This document shows positions 1 through 9,494 of a DNA stretch of 10,264 nucleotides, one piece after another. Both the position numbers and the translations under genes were made by a program. This stretch comes from an uncultured Nitrososphaeraceae archaeon (GTDB lineage: Archaea > Thermoproteota > Nitrososphaeria > Nitrososphaerales > Nitrososphaeraceae): the NCBI GenBank assembly GCA_963837175.1, contig CAWIMJ010000028.1, forward strand, positions 1 through 10,264, written 5' to 3'. Numbering within the stretch: position 1 is the first letter of the stretch; the number at the start of each line of letters is the position of its first letter. The notes under the pieces were generated by a model. It searched no databases and was not told where the DNA came from. It worked only from the letters and a program-made list of their open reading frames with translations.

Positions 1-85
1 TGAAATTGGACAAGAAAAACGTCTAGTCCTACCTGTCTGTCACACACGACAGGTACTTTCCATTAAAAGGCAAATCTATTAATAA

Positions 86-274
86 TTAACAGTAGATATG
101 TGGCAATTCATCGGACATCATTAGAACTGAATCACCAGTCTTAATCTCTGCATGGATTATGCTCTTTCCATCAGGAGTATAATTACCATAGATTTCTTTA
201 GCACCAAACGCTCTTTTGTAAAAATCTATAGCCTTTTCAGTGTCCTCTACTTTTTGAGCCTGGTAGTCTGTCAA
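86..274 (-). pseudogene. Glyoxalase/VOC (PhnB-like) family protein fragment
   Basis: The translation KAIDFYKRAFGAKE...PDGKSIIHAEIKTGDSVLMMSDE matches the typical first half of PhnB/VOC proteins. It stops at 86 before the second beta-alpha-beta module, and the N-terminus (TTG start, KVKP in another frame upstream) looks disrupted. Confidence 0.8.
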
Positions 275-326
275 CTTTGGGTTTCACTTTTTATTCTCAC
301 GAGTCCCTTTAGAGAACTAATATCAG

Positions 327-345
327 TGCGGGTTCATTGGATGCA
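327..345 (-). repeat. Possible degenerate copy of the tRNA-3'-end-like motif
   Basis: Plus strand TGCGGGTTCATTGGATGCA aligns to 5291-5310 TACGGGTTCGGTGGGATGCA at 16 of 20 columns with one gap. Confidence 0.3.
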
Positions 346-415
346 GGACAAATTTGGCTCAAATATGCCACCCAGATTATTGTAGGATGTATTCGATTGA
401 ACATTGCATTTTTCA

Positions 416-423
416 TTTAAATA
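416..423 (+). promoter_or_regulatory. Putative archaeal TATA box (TTTAAATA) for the ORF at 450
   Basis: TTTAAATA begins 34 bp upstream of ATG 450, a spacing compatible with a leaderless or short-leader archaeal transcript. Confidence 0.35.
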
Positions 424-449
424 TCTTAGAGGAGATATATTATAGATTT

Positions 450-602
450 ATGGATGAATGGGATCCAGCCATTAATGATTTTGTATTAAGATGCAAAAGT
501 TGCTGGAAAACAAACAAGTATATCAAAATTATCCATACATCCCGGGAAAAATATTATTATGAAAAATGTTTGAATATATATAATAATCTATGCCATTGCT
601 AA
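450..602 (+). CDS. Small Cys-rich (CxxC...C...CHC) hypothetical protein, 50 aa
   Basis: In-frame ATG 450 within track ORF 354..602 gives MDEWDPAINDFVLRCKSCWKTNK...EKCLNIYNNLCHC. A TATA-like box lies upstream. It may be decayed. Confidence 0.45.
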   Translation: MDEWDPAINDFVLRCKSCWKTNKYIKIIHTSREKYYYEKCLNIYNNLCHC

Positions 603-635
603 ATCCAAAGAATTGGCCTAATTCTATTAGAAGAT

Positions 636-656
636 TACGGATCTGGAGGGATTTGA
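636..656 (-). other. tRNA 3'-end fragment (att-like site)
   Basis: Minus strand TCAAAT-CCCTC-CAGATCC-G-TA parses as a partial T-loop, 3' T-stem, 3' acceptor strand and discriminator G. It is 14/18 identical to the motif at 4003. The rest of the tRNA is absent. Confidence 0.65.
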
Positions 657-1002
657 GGCATGTTGGTAGGCGGATTCAATTCTATTTGGTCATTATAAAA
701 ACAGTTCAATTGGTCGAGGAGTTTGTGAATTGTTAATGACACACATTTAGGTCCACAAGTTTGTGAATCAAACATTGATATACTTTATGTACTAAAATGA
801 GTAGTCAAAATGTTTTTTCTCATGACGATATGATTTCTGTATAAAAGTAGGATTTCTATTATTTGACTCTAAACAGCTGTGATCGTGACTTTGATATTAT
901 TTTTCTCTTACGCACCAATCTTTTAGAAGTCTTTAATCTAATCCTTAACTTTTCCTTTACTTGTATTTTTCTTGTAGCTATTTATAAATTGTATATATCT
1001 AC

Positions 1003-1251
1003 CTAAACACCAGGACCTACAGCAGGATCCCAATCTGGATTGCCGTCTCCATCCATGTCAGAAGAACTGTCTACACCTTCGTAGTCAGGTTCATCTTCTT
1101 CTCCTGATAGTTCTTCTTCAGATCTTTTTGTTGTTCTTACCGGCTTTTCGTCCTCCGGTCTGACTATTGCTTCTTTTGGAACATCAGGAAATTCTCCTTT
1201 TTTACTATCTTCTTGGGTAGCTGCATTGTTAGTATCAGTATCTACAACCAT
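1003..1251 (-). CDS. Small acidic, probably disordered hypothetical protein (82 aa)
   Basis: Asp/Glu-rich ORF MVVDTDTNNAATQEDSKKGEFPDVPKEAIVRPEDE...DGDGNPDWDPAVGPGV. ATG 1251 is preferred over 1299 because the upstream 16 codons look like promoter sequence. Confidence 0.75.
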   Translation of the reverse strand: MVVDTDTNNAATQEDSKKGEFPDVPKEAIVRPEDEKPVRTTKRSEEELSGEEDEPDYEGVDSSSDMDGDGNPDWDPAVGPGV

Positions 1252-1317
1252 ATATCTCAGTGATAATACTTTGTACCCTACATGATTTAACAATTTCATA
1301 AAGTGTCAAGATTGGAA

Positions 1318-1332
1318 TGGGCCGGGTCGGAT
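1318..1332 (-). other. tRNA 3'-end fragment (att-like site), different tRNA species
   Basis: Minus strand AT-CCGAC-CCGGCCC-A parses as T-loop end, 3' T-stem, 3' acceptor strand and discriminator A. It has the same orientation and register as the other motifs. Confidence 0.55.
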
Positions 1333-1500
1333 CCAGAACAGAATTGACATTATATTTTGGCCCAGGGAAATGCAAACGAAAATTCATTTGAGTATGGTCA
1401 CTTGTGAACTGTCATCGACATAAAATATTGGTTCAAGGATATTTGCGAAGGTAGGTTTTAAATTAAACTATTAGAGCCAGAATAAAAGCTTTCTGCTTGC

Positions 1501-1590
1501 CGTCTTAAGATGGAAAAGGATGATCAACTACATATATACACGGATGGAGAAGAACTTTGTTTTAAAAAAGTTGAAATGCCAAAAATATAA
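1501..1590 (+). pseudogene. Remnant of an AbrB/SpoVT-like DNA-binding protein (C-terminal half)
   Basis: Manual translation RLKMEKDDQLHIYTDGEELCFKKVEMPKI* resembles the AbrB pattern L.l..GD.l.v...g..i.lkk. There is an in-frame stop a few codons upstream and no N-terminal half. Confidence 0.4.
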
Positions 1591-1611
1591 TTATATTAAA
1601 ATAAGAAATAG

Positions 1612-1651
1612 TTTATAGATGTGTGCATACATGTATTTTGCGTACACACAT
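1612..1651 (+). promoter_or_regulatory. TATA-like box followed by an imperfect inverted repeat (possible operator)
   Basis: TTTATAGA at 1612-1619, then arms ATGTGTGCATACA (1619-1631) and TGCGTACACACAT (1639-1651) with 10/13 complementary positions, just before ATG 1657. Confidence 0.35.
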
Positions 1652-1656
1652 TCGTT

Positions 1657-1974
1657 ATGAATATGCAAGTCCAGCCTGAACAGATACAACAGCAACAATC
1701 GCAGCAGCCGGTGCAATCAAAGCAACCAAAGCGCCAGCGGCGACAAAGGAAGAAGAATAAGAATACCATTACCGCCGCTGCTGACAAGCAACCGGAGATT
1801 ACCGCAGAAGCAAGGCTTAGACTTCATACAAAAAGGTATGCAGATCCGATCATCATGAATAATTATGATTCGCCTATAGATTCTAATGGGCAGCGCTTCT
1901 TACTCACAGTTTTTGCGCCTAAGAACGTAGATAAGCAATCAAGACCATTAGAAACACTCCTTGAAATGAATTAG
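1657..1974 (+). CDS. Hypothetical protein with Gln-rich and basic N-terminus (about 105 aa)
   Basis: Track ORF 1621..1974, re-started at ATG 1657 downstream of the TATA box. Poly-Q and KRQRRQRKKNK segments are followed by a short globular-looking region. Confidence 0.65.
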   Translation: MNMQVQPEQIQQQQSQQPVQSKQPKRQRRQRKKNKNTITAAADKQPEITAEARLRLHTKRYADPIIMNNYDSPIDSNGQRFLLTVFAPKNVDKQSRPLETLLEMN

Positions 1975-2047
1975 AAAATGACTCTGACATCTGGACGGTC
2001 TTAGAGTGACTTTAATTTTCAATAATTATTATTTTTGTTAATATCTC

Positions 2048-2617
2048 TTATTTTGCAAAAACAAATCCAGTAGTTGCCTTTGCTTCTATTAGACCCTTCA
2101 GCTGCTTAGACAGATCGATAGTTTCCTTCCTATAGTCTGCTATCTTAGCATCGTATCCTCTTAACACCTTACTGGCAGTTTGTTCATCTACCTTGTTTAA
2201 AATAACTGATTCTCTGAGTTGAGCTGCACCTCTAAGAACTCTATTATATCTATCTATAGCCATGTCAAGTTTCAACATAGTATACTGAGCATTGGAATAC
2301 ACATCCCAAAAAAAGGGCGAGGATATAGCAGCTTTTAGAGCGCTATTATACAGTTCCTCTATTTGTACATACAGATTACTATTACCATTATCGCCGCTGC
2401 TGCTTGACGAAGGTACGCTCTCCAGCAGCTGGTCATTTTCTTTCAATTCTCTGAGGACATGCTCAGATAAATGAACGGTATTTCTTTTGTGTCTCCGACC
2501 TTGTCTAAACCCGTTAATCCAATAGAAGATTATAAAGGCGATTATCAATGCCGCAAGTGCTACGATACCGGCCATTGCAGCAACTATAGCAGGTATTGCC
2601 ATAGCAGCGATCTTCAT
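2048..2617 (-). CDS. Membrane-anchored hypothetical protein; probably the C-terminal part of a frameshifted gene starting at 2963
   Basis: 189-aa ORF with a long hydrophobic segment (AIPAIVAAMAGIVALAALIIAFIIFYW), then a basic stop-transfer patch and a helical soluble domain. Confidence 0.7.
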   Translation of the reverse strand: MKIAAMAIPAIVAAMAGIVALAALIIAFIIFYWINGFRQGRRHKRNTVHLSEHVLRELKENDQLLESVPSSSSSGDNGNSNLYVQIEELYNSALKAAISSPFFWDVYSNAQYTMLKLDMAIDRYNRVLRGAAQLRESVILNKVDEQTASKVLRGYDAKIADYRKETIDLSKQLKGLIEAKATTGFVFAK

Positions 2618-2963
2618 CTAGTCTAGTTTTAATACCTTGTAATCTTGAATCTATCCTTTCTTCTACAACGTCAACTACTCTCTCTACCGATGAGCTGAGA
2701 TTGGTAGTCAAAATACTGGGGTCTCTGAGGATCGAAAGTAAACCATCGCCAGACGAAGGAGTATTAGTGGGGGCGGTGGTGGTAGTATTGTTTCGTCTTT
2801 GTCCTGAAAAAAGCTGCGCGTCAACCGTTGTTGATGTCAATGCAGGAAATACCAGAAAATAAGTTAATAACATACAAGAATAAATTGTAAACAAGACATA
2901 AGCCCAGCTGTTTCTTGTAGATGGTAACTTTGAAAAAAATCGATTAGTCCATGAAAGATTCAT
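2514..2963 (-). CDS. Signal-peptide/TM-bearing hypothetical protein; probably the N-terminal part of a gene frameshifted near 2618
   Basis: Hydrophobic N-terminal segment ending in VDAQ, a Thr/Ser linker and a coiled-coil-like stretch. After IKTRLD the ORF reads as out-of-frame sequence overlapping the 2048..2617 ORF by 104 bp. Confidence 0.6.
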   Translation of the reverse strand: MNLSWTNRFFSKLPSTRNSWAYVLFTIYSCMLLTYFLVFPALTSTTVDAQLFSGQRRNNTTTTAPTNTPSSGDGLLSILRDPSILTTNLSSSVERVVDVVEERIDSRLQGIKTRLDEDRCYGNTCYSCCNGRYRSTCGIDNRLYNLLLD

Positions 2964-3046
2964 ATCGTAACAAGCAATGAAAACTTATAATGATTTATAG
3001 TTTTTGGTTTAGAATAACGATGGATGATCAAATGCTAAAAAAGTAA

Positions 3047-3244
3047 GTAGGTCCTGATGGTTAGCTCTATGTTGTTTCACTTGGTCATGGAGCAATATGT
3101 AAGATTTTTCCAGCTACTGAAGTAGTTTCAATAACTGATGTAGAAGCAGACATAGAAGAAGAGGAAGAAGATAGTGACAAAGATTAAGAATAAAAAGAAC
3201 AATCTCTACTAGCAACAAATAAAGAAGAAGAAAAACAAGAATAA
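3047..3244 (+). pseudogene. C-terminal remnant of a PQQ-dependent sugar (glucose/sorbosone) dehydrogenase-family gene
   Basis: Manual translation VGPDG*LYVVSLGHGAICKIFPATEVVSITDVEADIEEEEEDSDKD*E*... contains the family's last-blade motif GPDGxLYV..l..G.IykI. Stops occur at 3062, 3185 and 3191. It is not in the ORF track. Confidence 0.7.
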
Positions 3245-3592
3245 CTTTTTCTCTCAGATATACATATGCCTTGCAATGGGACTTTAGCTTAGGATGATCA
3301 ATCTCTTTGAAATGCCTTGTAGCATGCAATAATCCCTCAGACGAATCATAATATCCATCCAACATTCCCACAAGTCAAATATAGTCAGCACATATGTCCT
3401 TGGCTTGCCTCTCATATTTTATTCTGGATAACGGTATATACCTTTTAGTTCTTCTGACGATAGGATTGTACTAGCGTAGACAATTTTGCCATTATTTCAT
3501 CTCAAACATTTATTTTTCTATCCCGCGTGTTTTAAGCTTTCTATAATAGCTTCAGAAGAATTTAATGCATACATAAATGAGTATAGCGGGCC

Positions 3593-3802
3593 GTGTTGCG
3601 TTATGCATTCTTTTCAACGGATAATATTGTAAATGATAACATTGTAACATGTCCTTTTCATGGAGCAAGTTTTGATATTATCTCTGGTAAGAAGGTCAAA
3701 GAGCCTATACTGACACCTTCGCAAGAAATGGAACCACTACCAAAAACGTGGCAGATGTATTTGGAACATGCAGGACAACTAATGGCTCATATTAAGACAT
3801 AG
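3593..3802 (+). pseudogene. Rieske 2Fe-2S protein fragment
   Basis: Contains Rieske box 2 (IVTCPFHGASFDIISGK) but has no intact CxH box 1 upstream. It has a GTG start and ends abruptly at HIKT*. Confidence 0.8.
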
Positions 3803-4002
3803 ATAAGCAAATCCACTGAAACTACAATTAGAAGAGATAGTGGTAATAAAGGGATTAAGTTATTGTCTTTTCAGGTTCTCAAATGTTGCTTCATACTGAA
3901 TATCTATCCGAAAATCATCCATCTAGGATTCTCTTTAACGAATTAAGAAATATTAGGATATGATAAATATTATAATATTATAATATAAATAGATGTAAAT
4001 TC

Positions 4003-4019
4003 TACGGGTTCGGTGGGAT
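4003..4019 (-). repeat. 17-bp direct repeat copy 1; tRNA 3'-end fragment (att-like)
   Basis: Plus strand TACGGGTTCGGTGGGAT is identical to 5291-5307. The minus strand reads (A)AT-CCCAC-CGAACCC-G-TA. Confidence 0.85.
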
Positions 4020-4327
4020 TAGGTCCCCGCATGTATAAGGGGTTCTGTCACTTAGGTTTATTTAGCTTCCTTCATCATCTCTACGGCCATGAAAGACGCA
4101 CAGGAGTGAATCTGAAGTCGCTTTTATATAAAAAAAGTGAAGTGGTTAACTGCTTTCCATATCTAGTCAGATAATGATTACAATTCTTGCAGTAAATCCA
4201 AAGATTACAGTAGACTTGCGTTCTTAACAATCGCAGAATATTTTTTTATACTATCCAGCATCCTTCAGTATATTGGTGTTCAATAAAGGACAACATAGAA
4301 AAGTAATTATGATCACTAATACAATTA

Positions 4328-5260
4328 ATGAAAAAAATTATCCTAGGTTTACTTTCTCTATCGTTAATTATTGGATCTTTAGCCTTGCCGATGAGCATGG
4401 CCAACTATAGGGTGATACCATTTGCATATGCTCAAACAAATGCTGCTATGTTGACTGCTTTAGCAGCAAATAATAACAACAATGATAGCAACTTTATAAA
4501 TAATACCACAGTGTCTAGCGCTACAGCTAATACCATTACCTCTAATGATAGTAATACTACTCAAGGCTTACAAATCAAAACAGGACTCAATTATTTTGAC
4601 AGTAGTTTGGGTTATCTCGTGTACCCTTCATCTACTACTGACAAGAAATTTCCAGCAGTAATAATGATTCATGAATGGTGGGGCATAAACGACAATATAC
4701 GAAGTATGGCCAACATCCTTGCTAAGCAAGGCTATGTAGTATTGGCAGTTGATTTATTCAAAGGTCAGTCAGCTAAAGAGCAGAACCAGGCTATGCAACT
4801 AGTAAGGGCAGCCAGTAATAATCCTGAACAGTCTATTTCTAATTTAGAAGCAGCAGTAAAGTACGTAAGCTCCCTTCCTTTCGTTGATGGTTCTAAAATA
4901 TCTTCTATTGGTTGGTGTTTTGGTGGAGGACAATCGCTGCAACTAGCATTACATAGCGAACAACATCCATTAGTCGCAACTATATTATACTATGGAACTC
5001 CATTGGTCACAGATAAACAAGAACTCTCAAAGATAAAATGGCCTGTGCTTGGAATATTTGGCGATAAAGACCAATCTATTCCATTGTCAAAGATACAACA
5101 ATTCAAAGCAGCACTAGATGGTACTGGTATATCAAATGAAATTCACATATACAAAGGATTAGGACATGCATTTGCAAATCCTTCCGGAGGTAATTATGCT
5201 CCAAATGAAACTGTAGATGCTTGGCAAAAGACATTGGCATTTTTGAAGAAATACACATAG
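4328..5260 (+). CDS. Dienelactone hydrolase family protein (alpha/beta hydrolase) with signal peptide
   Basis: Motifs IHEWWG, GYVVLAVDLF, nucleophile GWCFGG, GDKDQSI (Asp) and GLGHAF (His). The N-terminus has MKK plus a hydrophobic stretch and AYAQ, followed by an Asn/Thr-rich linker. Confidence 0.95.
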   Translation: MKKIILGLLSLSLIIGSLALPMSMANYRVIPFAYAQTNAAMLTALAANNNNNDSNFINNTTVSSATANTITSNDSNTTQGLQIKTGLNYFDSSLGYLVYPSSTTDKKFPAVIMIHEWWGINDNIRSMANILAKQGYVVLAVDLFKGQSAKEQNQAMQLVRAASNNPEQSISNLEAAVKYVSSLPFVDGSKISSIGWCFGGGQSLQLALHSEQHPLVATILYYGTPLVTDKQELSKIKWPVLGIFGDKDQSIPLSKIQQFKAALDGTGISNEIHIYKGLGHAFANPSGGNYAPNETVDAWQKTLAFLKKYT

Positions 5261-5290
5261 TAACCTCATTTTTTCATTTCCTTCAGAATT

Positions 5291-5307
5291 TACGGGTTCG
5301 GTGGGAT
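5291..5307 (-). repeat. 17-bp direct repeat copy 2; tRNA 3'-end fragment (att-like)
   Basis: Exact copy of 4003-4019, 1288 bp downstream and 30 bp after the hydrolase stop codon. Confidence 0.85.
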
Positions 5308-5310
5308 GCA

Positions 5311-5324
5311 ATACACTAGTGTAT
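5311..5324. repeat. Perfect 14-bp palindrome ATACACTAGTGTAT
   Basis: The sequence equals its own reverse complement and lies 3 bp from the att-like motif. Confidence 0.7.
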
Positions 5325-5769
5325 GTAATCTACTTGCACAATGTAAAATGGTTTAGTCTAAGAGGGTATTTAATTTGCTTTTAACAAGATATAATTATCT
5401 TTGAATTTTGATTCGGCAGCAACGGCATAGACCAATACTTCAGTTAGCCATCCTGCGAACATACAATAACTTTTTTTCAAACTGTCTCATTACCAATGAA
5501 ACTAAATGCAGCACATCGTGAATATGGGGTAACTTTTCCTATGAAGGAAGAATGGTATTTTACTTTCTTTAGGCTCGAAACATTGTAATGACAAGTCTGA
5601 CGTACCTTGATTCTTATATTAGATATAGGCTGGGATCATCTTACAAAGTTTGTATGAAAGAAGAGTGAGAAATATCGTTGCTTCCTAAAACCCTTTTGCA
5701 TGGTAAGATTTTCTCTTATAATTCAATGTTATAGTAGAATATAGGTGACATCATCATCTAATGAAGGTG

Positions 5770-6711
5770 TTATAACTGTAGTTTGTATGTATATGCAAAT
5801 TCAGTCTTTGTCTTAGCAGTATTAAGATCTACAAATTCTTGTTCTTTTAGTAAGGAAAGATAAAAATCATTTGTCTTCCTTACTAAAGAGAGTGGAAATT
5901 CCTCCAAATACAAATTTCCGTTAGATCTATTTGCTTTGTTTACGTGTTTTACATAATAATCAAAAGAGAATTCTACAATTTCAGGAATTACTTTTTTTTC
6001 TTCATCTAGCAAATACCAAAAACTAAGAGATAAATCATCAGTAGTATCGTTTTTGTCCAAAGATTTGATCATTCCAAGCTTGATGGAAATTTCTTTTACT
6101 TCAAAATTATTAACTTTCTGCAATTCAGTATCAACATCAATATTCAATACATTCAAACCTGGAAAAATTGATAAAAGATCTGCTATGGTATTTGGCTGTA
6201 GTTCCTTTTTAGTATGAAATGATACAGAATGAGAAAATTTGCTAGCAAAGTCTGGAGAGTTTGAATTTGTACTTTCAACTCTTGGAATTATGTCTTCTTC
6301 AAATTCAAATTTAGCTTTGAGTTTTTCTTCTTTTTCTCTTATGTTAGGTGAAAGGTCATATGATGCTGATATATATCTATCTGAATTCCTACACTTCAGA
6401 TCAGTTACATAATCGTCATCTTTCTCTTTTCTTATCCTAACTAAGAATTTATTTTTTTTATAAAGCTCAAAATTTTGGGTATCTAAATACCATACTCTTC
6501 TCTTTTTTTCTCCATTGTCATGCTTCTTGTCTTTCCTATCAAAATATACTTGTTCTCCTTCTCTTTTTCCTTCTTTCACATTCAGTATCTCAATTTGAGA
6601 TTTTATGATATCCAAAAAATCCTTTATGCCCTTGTCCCTTTCTTCAAATTTGCTTGTTCTGAGCATCAGTTTGTATTCACGTCCTGTTATAGGTCGATTA
6701 GCATAGGTCAT
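5770..6711 (-). CDS. CYTH-like (triphosphate tunnel metalloenzyme fold) protein
   Basis: N-terminal REYK, then WYLDTQNFEL, VRIR, LKCR, EFEEDI, VEFSF and a C-terminal KTEFAY follow the order of CYTH motifs. ATG 6711 is preferred over GTG 6720, and TTATATA lies at 6757-6751. Confidence 0.75.
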   Translation of the reverse strand: MTYANRPITGREYKLMLRTSKFEERDKGIKDFLDIIKSQIEILNVKEGKREGEQVYFDRKDKKHDNGEKKRRVWYLDTQNFELYKKNKFLVRIRKEKDDDYVTDLKCRNSDRYISASYDLSPNIREKEEKLKAKFEFEEDIIPRVESTNSNSPDFASKFSHSVSFHTKKELQPNTIADLLSIFPGLNVLNIDVDTELQKVNNFEVKEISIKLGMIKSLDKNDTTDDLSLSFWYLLDEEKKVIPEIVEFSFDYYVKHVNKANRSNGNLYLEEFPLSLVRKTNDFYLSLLKEQEFVDLNTAKTKTEFAYTYKLQL

Positions 6712-7169
6712 AATGTTCACTCTGTCTCAGTCTATTTCTAGACTTTGCTCTATATAAGGAACAATTAATGAACATATTAAATCTGTTTTTAGAATAGATC
6801 AATTACCCGTAAGAGGCTATCAGAAGGCTGCTGGAATAGTACTCTTATCAGTACTTCTATACCAGGGTACTTGTCTATTACAATTATAAAACCAGACATA
6901 GTCAACGACCAAAAGCAATCAAACACATGTTATGTAGTTAATATGTCACTAAATGATTGATGAAAAAATGTAGAATTGAATTATGCCCATGTCTCAATTA
7001 GTTAGATTACTCTTCCTTTGACGACAGTCCTTGAGATGACCCAATATGTTAGATGTCTTTGGAAAAACCAAAATAACTAACTGCTGCCGATAGGCTATGC
7101 AAGATGAAATCACAGCAATCGATATACCTAAAATAACTAGGTTATTTATTATCTATTGTCGTCTAGCCA

Positions 7170-7958: not shown

Positions 7959-8234
7959 AAAGAAAGAAAATTTCCCTCATTCAAAATATCCAGTATAATA
8001 AAAGTAAAAGAATGAAAGTCATTTAGAGATTCTCTTGCCAAATCAAAGAGAAAGATATTTGAGGATATGTTTGCTATTTCTCATTTGTATAACTCTGCAT
8101 GCTCTTATTCTGCCAAATATGTTAGAATAAACCCTATTTTCATGTCTATTATATTTCATCATTATAAACAACTTACAAAGGTGAATATTGAAGAATGGGA
8201 ATATGTGCTATGTATTGCGTCAAAGACAAAATAG
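7959..8234 (+). pseudogene. Pseudogene of a small conserved archaeal 'MGRTIPSFR...EWKxFR' protein
   Basis: Manual translation KERKFPSFKISSIIKVKE*KSFRDSLAKSKRKIFEDMFAISHLYNSACSYSAKYVRINPIFMSIIFHHYKQL. The start codon is lost and Trp appears changed to TGA at 8013. It is not in the ORF track. Confidence 0.7.
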
Positions 8235-8318: not shown

Positions 8319-9494
8319 TTACTTTCTTCTTAACCTTCTACTAGGTTGCATTAATTCCATCAGCTGATATCCATATTCTAAATTGTGTTTAATATGGTTA
8401 ATCCCATGAGAACCATGTAGTATAAATTTATTATCAAGAACATTTTCAATATAGGATCTTGCTTTTCTTAATGAGGTTATAGCATGTTGGAGTTGATAAT
8501 CAGTCAGATTTCTTCCAAGCTCCTTTTGAAGATCTACTTTAAATTTCTCTTCAGAGTCTCTTATTATCAGCTCACAGTATTTTTGTAATTTACCGTAGTT
8601 AAAACAAAGATCTCTCATTCTTATTGTATCTGCAAGCTGCAATTCAGCAAGTGACAATTCTAATGCTTTTTTGCTTCTGCCAGTAATCTGATTAAGATTT
8701 TCAATTAATTTACTTTTTTCCTCTTCACTAATGTTGTTGTTATAGTAGTAGTAGTTTGATGATGGTGGTGACGACATGGGTCTTGACTTGAATATATTGT
8801 TTGAATATCCTTTTTTCTTGTGTATAGTATCAAAGGTTGTGACATGGGCAGTAGTAGTAGTAGCCTTATCAATGTTTAATTTTCTATATTGATAATAACT
8901 CTTTATACCATACGTAGTTATTCTCTTACCTTCAGTATCTATTCCTTTAGCAAAACCTGATACAACATCAACAATAATTTGTGGATAATTTGTTTTTAAC
9001 CTCTCGTTGGAACTCTGATAATTTTCCATAATATCTTTAGAGATTTCAAATATTGTAGCTTTTACTATTTCTGATTTTTTTTCTAAGTGTGCTGGTGTTG
9101 TTGTTGTTACTTTTACTCCGCGTATTTTATCTTGTTCTTCTTTTCCTCCTTTCTCCTCCTCCTCATGAATGCTCATTGGATAAAGATTAGCAGATGTTGC
9201 TGCTATAATTAAAAAATCATTTATTTCTGATTGGGAAAAGATATGCTTATTAGTTGCACACGACTCTGCTATTACCTTCATAGCTATAATCCATTTTCCA
9301 TAAGTGTTTATCTTCTCAACATTAATCTTTTTGATAGATTCAAAAGCTTTTTTACTAATTTGGCTATTGTGCTTTATTTTTAACCTATCCAGACATTCAT
9401 CAAGTACTCTCTCTAGAGGAGAATCTGTAACTACATTCTCCTCCTCATTTTGTAATGGTGGTGATGATGATGGCGAGTATTTACTATCTTTCAT
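8319..9494 (-). CDS. Hypothetical protein, 391 aa, with His-rich C-terminal motif HGSHGINHIKH
   Basis: Long ORF with an ATG start, low-complexity linkers (poly-E, T, Y, N) between helical regions, and no confidently recognisable family. Confidence 0.85.
   Translation of the reverse strand: MKDSKYSPSSSPPLQNEEENVVTDSPLERVLDECLDRLKIKHNSQISKKAFESIKKINVEKINTYGKWIIAMKVIAESCATNKHIFSQSEINDFLIIAATSANLYPMSIHEEEEKGGKEEQDKIRGVKVTTTTPAHLEKKSEIVKATIFEISKDIMENYQSSNERLKTNYPQIIVDVVSGFAKGIDTEGKRITTYGIKSYYQYRKLNIDKATTTTAHVTTFDTIHKKKGYSNNIFKSRPMSSPPSSNYYYYNNNISEEEKSKLIENLNQITGRSKKALELSLAELQLADTIRMRDLCFNYGKLQKYCELIIRDSEEKFKVDLQKELGRNLTDYQLQHAITSLRKARSYIENVLDNKFILHGSHGINHIKHNLEYGYQLMELMQPSRRLRRK

Follow-up and report, generated by a model that had tools for sequence, protein, structure and literature searches.

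Copies of tRNA 3' ends at the joints of shuffled gene modules in an uncultured Nitrososphaeraceae archaeon, and their probable origin as attachment cores

Integrative elements that target tRNA genes leave behind a displaced 3' tRNA fragment (attR), and such scars are textbook knowledge (Reiter 1989 and Williams 2002, cited in PMC9897764). In Streptococcus, integrase-less cis-mobilizable elements (CIMEs) flanked by attachment (att) sites accrete with integrative and conjugative elements (ICEs). Here we describe an array of small gene modules in a stretch of 10,264 nucleotides from an uncultured Nitrososphaeraceae archaeon (GenBank assembly GCA_963837175.1, contig CAWIMJ010000028.1). This stretch, hereafter the window, makes up all of contig C28 in the source genome, G000. 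A first-pass annotation made from the sequence alone had noticed GC-rich intergenic motifs in its left 5.3 kb and proposed that they were 3'-end fragments of at least three different tRNAs that partition the region into cargo modules. We found that the motifs are short copies of resident tRNA 3' ends at the joints of shuffled gene modules, and that they indeed represent three tRNA types (Lys, Val, and Arg-like).

The arrays resemble tRNA-targeted integrative elements in that their direct repeats are equal to a tRNA 3' end and are co-oriented, an integrase lies directly downstream of a tRNA, and the att site is short, i.e., 15 nt here and 17 bp as the thaumarchaeal median given by Krupovic et al. 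2019 (PMC6563490), where tandem reuse of one integration site is also stated. They differ from such elements, and from the textbook scar, in copy number (dozens of copies of a single tRNA tail for each genome of the genus that was searched), in small modules (down to 0.06 to 1.4 kb) without an integrase, in a few conserved arm classes with free reassortment at a core of 15 nt, in the mixing of several tRNAs' tails within one array, and in the position of the arrays away from the tRNA gene. Neither on C28 nor with the arrays on C8 and C22 did we see a full tRNA on one side and a fragment on the other. The cryptic integrated elements of PMC6563490 encode an integrase by definition, the smallest being 2.6 kb, and the word "non-autonomous" is absent from the main text of that paper.

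With CIMEs, the arrays would share the stacking of non-autonomous, att-flanked DNA by site-specific recombination in reliance on a neighbor's integrase, and site-specific accretion is also described for phage-ICE tandems (PMC13651849). However, the present system is archaeal and has far more sites, much smaller units, and several conserved arm classes, and its dependence on a helper integrase is presumed. Integrons, also described from archaea (Ghaly et al., 10.1101/2022.02.06.479319), likewise have arrays of single-gene cassettes of varied function, a short variable site with a conserved core, "empty" units, and an enzyme encoded outside the cassettes, whereas the core here is a tRNA tail and the arrays are many and dispersed rather than gathered on one platform. 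In place of an IntI/attI/Pc platform, we found six matches to PF00589 in the genome, none of them in the window, and many arrays on integrase-less contigs (the IntI-specific insertion was not examined). For none of the four arm classes described below did RNAalifold return a consensus hairpin of attC type that extends across arm and core. Nor are the cassettes promoterless and co-oriented: of the open reading frames (ORFs) of at least 100 amino acids (aa) in cassettes, 59 share the strand of the tail and 41 do not (P = 0.09), and several cassettes carry TATA-like boxes of their own (by eye). Thus, the comparison with integrons made in the first-pass annotation holds as an analogy only. The pTN3 integrase is known to recombine tRNA gene copies and thereby to produce chromosome inversions in Thermococcales (PMC5495485). 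Common to both would be a reshaping of the genome by an integrase that is encoded on an element and works on sequences derived from tRNA at secondary sites in the chromosome, but the outcome is large inversions between full tRNA genes there and co-oriented arrays of small modules with dedicated arms here. Full-text searches, which did not cover the supplementary att-site tables of PMC6563490, found no description of the present arrays.

tRNA tails in the window and in the genome

The source assembly (3.81 Mb, 58 contigs, GC content of 34%, completeness of 91%) was scanned as a whole with the last 15 nt from 29 tRNA loci, allowing up to 2 mismatches. Upstream, downstream, and the order of arms are all stated in tRNA sense; G002 and G005 are genomes of the same genus, and G069 is a genome of another genus in the comparison. 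The four GC-rich motifs (m1 to m4 in Table 1) were all located on the minus strand as annotated. Positions 4005 to 4019 and 5293 to 5307 each reproduce exactly the final 15 nt of tRNA-Lys(CTT), a resident, intron-containing gene at C7:3528-3621, the former match extending to 16 nt, and positions 1318 to 1332 do the same for tRNA-Val(GAC) at C17:54210-54284. With up to 3 mismatches, the Lys 15-mer matched the window twice, against a mean of 0.03 in 200 shuffled versions of the window, none of which reached two matches.

Not every fragment had an exact tRNA counterpart, since the tails at 638 to 656 and 327 to 345 are decayed. The former had no exact tRNA parent in any of the seven genomes of the genus; its exact sequence occurs in C28 and C40 only, and the G005 orthologues differ by 2 nt. 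Since sites bearing the tail of a tRNA-like Arg(CCT) locus at C17:49722 show homology to both its arm and its tail, we regard it as a decayed Arg(CCT)-like copy (11 of 15 positions agree by eye). This locus (C17:49722-49790) covers tRNA-model positions 9 to 63 only and has no recognizable 5' acceptor strand; its tail is the parent of several att copies, and it is followed by the same arm type as is found before integrase genes. The degenerate candidate at 327 to 345 proved to be a Lys tail with 2 substitutions and a 1-nt deletion (by eye), lying within a class A profile match (329 to 376; E = 1e-8), and the orthologous modules of G005 keep a better Lys-like tail at this position, with 2 mismatches. 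Besides, we identified a decayed Val-like tail at 708 to 722 that the annotation had not listed (10 of 15 positions agree by eye with the Val-like tail at C36:17588) and a weak candidate for a decayed core at approximately 3587 to 3601 (10 of 15 positions agree by eye with the tail at C3:48056). In tRNA sense, the window shows Lys, Lys, Val, Val-like, Arg-like, and Lys-like tails in succession. No full tRNA was detected in the window by ARAGORN or Rfam; Rfam gave no family at its gathering score, and its six weak matches were all below threshold and located elsewhere.

Tails of tRNA-Lys are present in large excess throughout the genome, with 64 non-tRNA copies in 3.8 Mb, compared with 1 to 10 for each of the 23 other tails with any copy (Val[GAC], 10; Ala[CGC], 9; Met, 8; the rest, 1 to 7). 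Eight Ala-tail-like 15-mers with 2 mismatches, on one strand and 18 to 153 nt apart at C18:16216-16756, look like a tandem repeat. When up to 1 mismatch was allowed, 13 to 38 Lys tails were found in all seven genomes of the genus and 0 to 5 in 24 genomes of other genera, whereas a reversed control gave 0 to 1. Adjacent cores tend to point the same way: of 51 pairs up to 10 kb apart, 41 shared their orientation and 10 did not (P = 1.5e-5), with spacings of 73 to 8940 nt (median, 3.0 kb). The co-oriented pairs comprised 20 Lys-Lys, 3 Arg-like/Arg-like, and 18 of mixed tRNA types.

Arms, junctions, and recombinases

The sequences upstream of 65 Lys cores formed clusters of 26, 14, 10, and 5 copies, here called classes A to D. 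Class A arms are about 33 nt long, class B arms have 40 to 100 nt and a 14-nt palindrome, class C arms have about 50 to 60 nt and a T-arm-like hairpin, and class D arms have about 70 nt and a 10-nt palindrome. Downstream arms formed clusters of 12, 7, 4, and fewer copies. Upstream and downstream arms assort freely; their contingency table is mixed, and class A alone combines with nine downstream clusters. Profiles of arm plus core searched with nhmmer (that of class A being built from the 26 copies) matched 66 (A), 24 (B), 23 (C), and 12 (D) sites in G000, about 125 in all. Furthermore, A- and C-type arms also stand on Val, Met, Ala, and Arg-like tails and on the tail of one further tRNA, and the portion of the arm adjoining the tail varies with the tail type. 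The annotated loss of tRNA similarity inside the T-loop was seen in classes A, B, and D but not in class C, in which partial T-arm similarity continues further in. Some downstream arms start with short palindromes, and a TATA-like box comes next where the following gene runs in tRNA sense, the same layout being found before integrase genes (by eye).

The Lys tail with the first 23 to 28 nt of the class B arm was found at 90 to 100% identity in 30 of 61 sampled genomes of the family, representing 12 of 18 genera, and two genomes of other genera hold at least 14 copies. Because of this distribution, we regard the arm-and-tail system as family-wide with lineage-specific expansions. In G069, three minimal class B units (spacer, palindrome, and Lys tail) lie head to tail about 48 nt apart (C49:6659-6770), and in one of their palindromes there is a double change that is symmetric.

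Whether within the genome, in sister species, or in metagenome contigs, homology breaks off at the motifs, in agreement with the annotated position of the co-oriented motifs at module boundaries. A 1.37-kb alpha/beta-hydrolase cassette has a Lys core on each side in G005:C14, G000:C51, and G000:C16, and the aligned sequences are unrelated up to the first core, shared throughout the cassette, and unrelated again after the second core; in G000:C21 the downstream core only is seen. Its upstream neighbors differ in all five contexts, i.e., class B, two class A variants, a nonhomologous sequence (G000:C21), and class C (G005:C33, where the cassette follows the arm and its far end is lost). Likewise, what precedes the downstream arm at 248 to 326 is a class B arm with its Lys core in G005:C38, a Lys core in G069:C16, and a class A arm with a small-ORF module in the window. 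One site was observed in occupied and empty states: the Val tail leads directly into the class C mini-unit (arm plus m1) in G005:C38, whereas the window has a 610-bp ORF cassette (723 to 1317) and the decayed Val-like tail in between. The G005:C38 match ends at 709, and the match to C36, which holds a cassette of 85% identity likewise with tail-like ends (C36:16979-17599), starts at 724. G005:C14 is a patchwork of 0.3- to 1.9-kb pieces, of which successive ones match different G000 contigs, and the Rieske block of the window (3603 to 4016) there abuts the small-ORF module (331 to 653) directly, with the joint at the core.

Metagenome contigs from four runs (X1 to X4) of four studies, compared at 90% likeness or more, joined 5307 to 345 (X2), 8180 to 4004 (X1), 3614 to 5292 (X3), and 1348 to 339 (X4), and many mutually different loose ends lay exactly before 5293 and behind 5307. 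The summed contig depth of the bin with m4 and its arm was 5 to 10 times that of neighboring bins. These contigs, possibly from paralogues or sister species, show alternative joints rather than activity. A joint of 3237 to 5287 in three runs was given no weight, as its shorter side has only 21 letters. At least half of the sampled window words were present in 20 soil or unlabeled runs of eight studies.

Variants within the core bear on the place of exchange. Core variant TT at positions 12 and 13 occurs with the same downstream arm in three of three places in the genus, each time with a different upstream arm, and four class D copies that align in register have T at position 3, the fifth being shifted by one base. 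The data are thin but consistent, and by them the exchange falls between core positions 3 and 12.

No recombinase was identified in the window by Pfam, in line with the remark in the annotation that the modules enclose no integrase. A tyrosine integrase, which the annotation had proposed to look for in the flanks, was found beside tRNA-Lys elsewhere. In G000, it lies directly downstream of tRNA-Lys(CTT) (C7:2223-3469), with its ORF split by a frameshift near C7:3020 that is either a real mutation or an assembly error. In G002:C198, tRNA-Lys (4332 to 4427) is followed 58 nt on by an intact integrase ORF of 419 aa (4485 to 5744), which has weak PF00589 and SAM-like matches and 95% identity to its C7 orthologue. 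After the integrase come a 692-aa protein with a weak helix-turn-helix match and a family B DNA polymerase (PF00136 and PF03175; G002:C198:7989-11062 and G000:C7:1-792). Judging from these genes, this is an autonomous, self-replicating plasmid- or virus-like element; its far end is unassembled. The Lys-linked integrase family has 12 copies in G000, mostly truncated, and six of them follow a tRNA or a tail (of Lys, Met, Val, or one other tRNA) at a distance of 50 to 370 nt. Another integrase ORF (405 aa; C2:28639-29856) lies by tRNA-Ala(CGC) and, when read from its first start codon, reaches 45 nt into the tRNA gene.

Composite arrays and competing explanations

We consider it probable that the motifs are the att cores of integrase elements that target tRNA genes and that have grown into composite arrays, whose modules are small and mostly lack an integrase. 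The 15-nt Lys, Val, and Arg(CCT)-like 3' ends would have been left behind by tRNA-targeting tyrosine integrases, and the left 5.3 kb of the window would be part of a composite accretion array, in which modules of about 0.06 to 2.7 kb were inserted beside and inside each other. In each module a downstream arm would come first, then cargo, then an upstream arm of one of the four classes, and finally a tail, and recombination inside the shared core would make any left neighbor joinable to any right neighbor. Incoming DNA would be small and mostly without an integrase, would bring its own arm-core-arm site, and would enter cores that stem from earlier insertions. Autonomous elements, acting in trans, are the most likely source of the enzyme, and the element at tRNA-Lys with its 419-aa integrase and family B DNA polymerase is an example. 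The identity of the catalyst and the mobilization in trans that the first-pass annotation had already suggested are inferences, and so would be any present-day activity. Repeated, nested integration is the simplest account, and the order of tails in the window fits it: a Lys-bounded unit of about 3.7 kb (m3 to m0) would hold the Val-bounded cassette and a lone Arg-like site, with the Lys-bounded dienelactone hydrolase (DLH) cassette alongside.

Several points weigh against this reading. For none of the small modules did we observe an integrase, a circle junction, or a product of excision, and units of 60 to 125 nt are too small for movement as circles. The Lys-linked integrase is frameshifted in the source genome. 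A second G000 copy was found for 7 of 37 candidate cassettes, with homology mostly reaching the core at one end only, and paralogous cassettes are 3 to 10% diverged and thus give no sign of very recent movement. About 45% of the co-oriented adjacent pairs carry tails of different tRNAs; simple same-site integration does not predict such pairs, and nesting or composite elements are needed. No intact tRNA gene stands beside the arrays on C8, C22, or C28. The full minus-strand tRNA that the annotation expected to the right is not on C28, a 10-kb contig with repeats at its bounds, and an anchor may lie beyond its ends. Free attP was not found, as six arm profiles gave no match in the 80 scanned of 84 IMG/VR stretches with the exact Lys 15-mer, and none of these 80 is AT-rich (no GC content below 0.40). 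The assembly contains near-duplicate contigs (e.g., window positions 1 to 1530 are 98.7% identical to the end of C40), and five Lys-core pairs have near-identical flanks, which reduces the 64 copies to perhaps 59 distinct sites. Finally, cores are better conserved than arms (85 to 92% versus 69 to 76%), a comparison that is biased since cores were chosen at up to 2 mismatches.

The main rival takes the motifs for inert scars, i.e., what remains as attR after integrated plasmids or viruses of full size had decayed through deletions, with small modules that were never mobile. The scarcity of duplicated cassettes and the divergence of paralogues fit it, and it would also explain the many truncated integrase fragments adjoining tails, the truncated cargo (glyoxalase, Rieske, and the arm-less hydrolase cassette in G005:C33), and the decay of m0, m1, and 708 to 722. 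It does not lead one to expect a 1.37-kb unit whose limits, in several contexts, fall exactly on the 15-nt core, with unrelated neighbors each time, and we therefore consider scars of this kind unlikely. Within this explanation, the mosaic would stem from old events and ordinary recombination between repeated arms; 15 nt of identity is short for homologous recombination, and upstream and downstream arms assort freely, so we regard such an origin as improbable too. Besides, a few arm classes are conserved on unrelated cargo, the class B unit being 90 to 100% identical in 12 of 18 genera, and this conservation across genera argues that the sites are functional.

Alternatively, the arm-and-tail units could have a function as RNA or in regulation (as tRNA-like minihelices, processing signals, or terminators) and have spread as short repeats, their position at module boundaries being secondary. 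Such a role would suit the strong conservation of the units across genera, the palindromes 3 to 5 nt from the tail in classes B and D, the start of class A arms with bases imitating the 5' acceptor strand of the matching tRNA, and the change of the class C hairpin with tail type. However, the units match neither an Rfam family at gathering score nor a tRNA, and the RNAalifold consensus is near nil (-0.08 for class A and -2 to -4 for B, C, and D). A symmetric double change in one class B palindrome of G069 would speak for this role, but palindrome variants in the class B alignment mostly break pairing instead of compensating for it (by eye). Since neighboring genes lie on both strands, and since the exact tRNA identity, the adjacent integrases, and the reshuffling at cores are left unexplained, we hold this explanation to be very unlikely.

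Even less probable are ends or target sites of an insertion sequence (IS), a miniature inverted-repeat transposable element (MITE), or a rolling-circle transposon. The units are short and numerous (about 125 profile matches), have subterminal palindromes, and stand in tandem at 48 nt in G069:C49, but neither a Y1 transposase (PF01797), which repeats of the IS200/IS605 or REP/RAYT type would call for, nor TnpB (PF07282) was matched in the 91% complete genome (DDE and HUH Y2 [Rep-helicase] families were not searched). The sole serine recombinase lies on another contig, no terminal inverted repeat connects the start and end of the one hydrolase cassette compared by eye, and the shared 15 nt are an exact tRNA tail rather than a variable target duplication. 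Hidden intron-containing or split tRNA genes do not fit 64 copies of one 3' piece with four unrelated upstream classes and no tRNA-model match, and retroelement primer-binding sites were rejected because no TGG precedes the complement (by eye; reverse transcriptase was not searched for).

A cassette exchange in the soil ammonia oxidizers of the Nitrososphaeraceae that is integron-like in action but made from other parts is possible, although we lean against it; att modules, each with a conserved arm and the last 15 nt of tRNA-Lys or another tRNA, would tag single accessory genes, and integrases of resident plasmid- or virus-like elements would move the cassettes, themselves without an integrase, in trans, stacking and swapping them. 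The genes tagged in this way might be hydrolases, esterases, and stress proteins, exchanged within genomes and between genera, a proposal that we put forward just as tentatively. If modules do move in trans, soil ammonia oxidizers, a group with large and poorly understood flexible genomes, would have a gene-by-gene route for the exchange of accessory functions, and ordinary tRNA-targeting integrases would have given rise to a functional counterpart of integrons. The cargo found close to cores comprises, among others, alpha/beta hydrolases (of the 17 members of this family, 10 are no more than 3 kb away from one), patatin, polysaccharide deacetylase, SDR, an ABC ATPase, and USP. DLH does not qualify as a cassette of the whole family; of 80 DLH loci in other Nitrososphaeraceae genomes, just one has a Lys core no more than 3 kb away, and we therefore take the gene to be ordinary and its capture to be local. 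In practice, tail sites break assemblies, and they may be miscalled as tRNA fragments.

Features of the window

The cargo in the window consists of DLH, glyoxalase and Rieske fragments, and small ORFs of no known family (Table 1).

Table 1. Coordinates of arms, cores, and cargo in the left part of the window
Feature	Position	Strand	Basis or content
Cassette start downstream of core m0	1..326	-	Truncated glyoxalase ORF 86-274 and downstream arm 248-326
Core m0, decayed tRNA-Lys tail	327..345	-	Class A profile; Lys-like tails in G005 orthologous modules
Class A upstream arm of m0	346..376	-	nhmmer profile, 66 genome-wide matches
Multicopy small-ORF module	377..637	+	50-aa Cys-rich ORF 450-602, TATA-like box before it
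Core m1, decayed Arg(CCT)-like tail	638..656	-	Homology to sites with the C17:49722 tail
Class C-like upstream arm of m1	657..707	-	Mini-unit with m1; 78% identity to C17:38994-39087
Decayed Val-like core	708..722	-	Preceded by class A-like arm 723-755
Val-flanked cassette	723..1317	-	Class A-like arm, 98-aa acidic ORF 1003-1299, downstream arm 1300-1317
Core m2, exact tRNA-Val(GAC) 15-nt tail	1318..1332	-	Identity to resident tRNA
Class A-like arm, Val type	1333..1366	-	Aligns with Lys class A arm (by eye)
Heterogeneous segment	1367..3602	.	ORFs 1621-1974(+), 2048-2617(-), 2514-2963(-)
Truncated cassette	3603..4004	-	Rieske C-terminal fragment 3593-3802 (+ strand), downstream arm; PF00355 partial match
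Core m3, exact tRNA-Lys(CTT) tail, 16 nt	4005..4020	-	Identity to resident tRNA
Class C upstream arm	4021..4068	-	Profile match 4005-4064, E = 2e-13; 10 seed copies
Dienelactone hydrolase cassette	4069..5292	+	Gene 4328-5260, PF01738 E = 4e-50; Lys core on either side
Core m4, exact tRNA-Lys(CTT) tail	5293..5307	-	Identity to resident tRNA
Class B upstream arm with 14-nt palindrome	5308..5400	-	Profile match E = 1e-19

The glyoxalase fragment was recognized by Pfam (PF22656/PF00903) on a 62-aa ORF, and the 5' end of the Val-type arm (1333 to 1366) imitates the 5' acceptor strand of tRNA-Val. A full-length Rieske cassette lies on C39 between a decayed core and a class C arm with a Lys core, and a 97%-identical copy of the DLH cassette lies beside an Ala tail at C34:140879-142040. 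Positions 2069 to 3057, with membrane-protein-like ORFs (2048 to 2617 and 2514 to 2963), are 90 to 93% identical in four sister species and form the best-conserved part of the window; there are no cores around this block in the three loci examined, and it may be ordinary chromosome caught between cassettes. Blocks 6759 to 7005, 7965 to 8180, and 3045 to 3197 have at least four copies each in G000 and occur elsewhere in the genus, with no recognizable tRNA tail in the window; the last position of the second block, 8180, is the one that the X1 contig connects directly with the Lys core at 4004. The minus-strand ORF at 5770 to 6720 (316 aa) has no Pfam family, and its protein-language features are nearest to unnamed or CYTH-labeled bacterial clusters, with low recognition; the ORF at 8319 to 9494 had no counterpart in the protein atlas. 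Either of these two ORFs could conceivably encode an unrecognized recombinase.

The small-ORF module has six copies in G000, and its homology ends at about 637, directly before m1. Its 50-aa Cys-rich ORF matches no Pfam family. ORFs of this kind (50 to 52 aa, pattern CxxC...C...CxC, in a module of about 300 bp) have many copies in every genome of the genus, and in G000 they recur at C40:4261-4410, C18:4209-4364, C9:13422-13577, C31:5784-5927, and C30:40969-41107. In four of the six copies the ORF lies about 70 nt from a class A arm, and the product could be a small zinc-ribbon DNA-binding or directionality factor.

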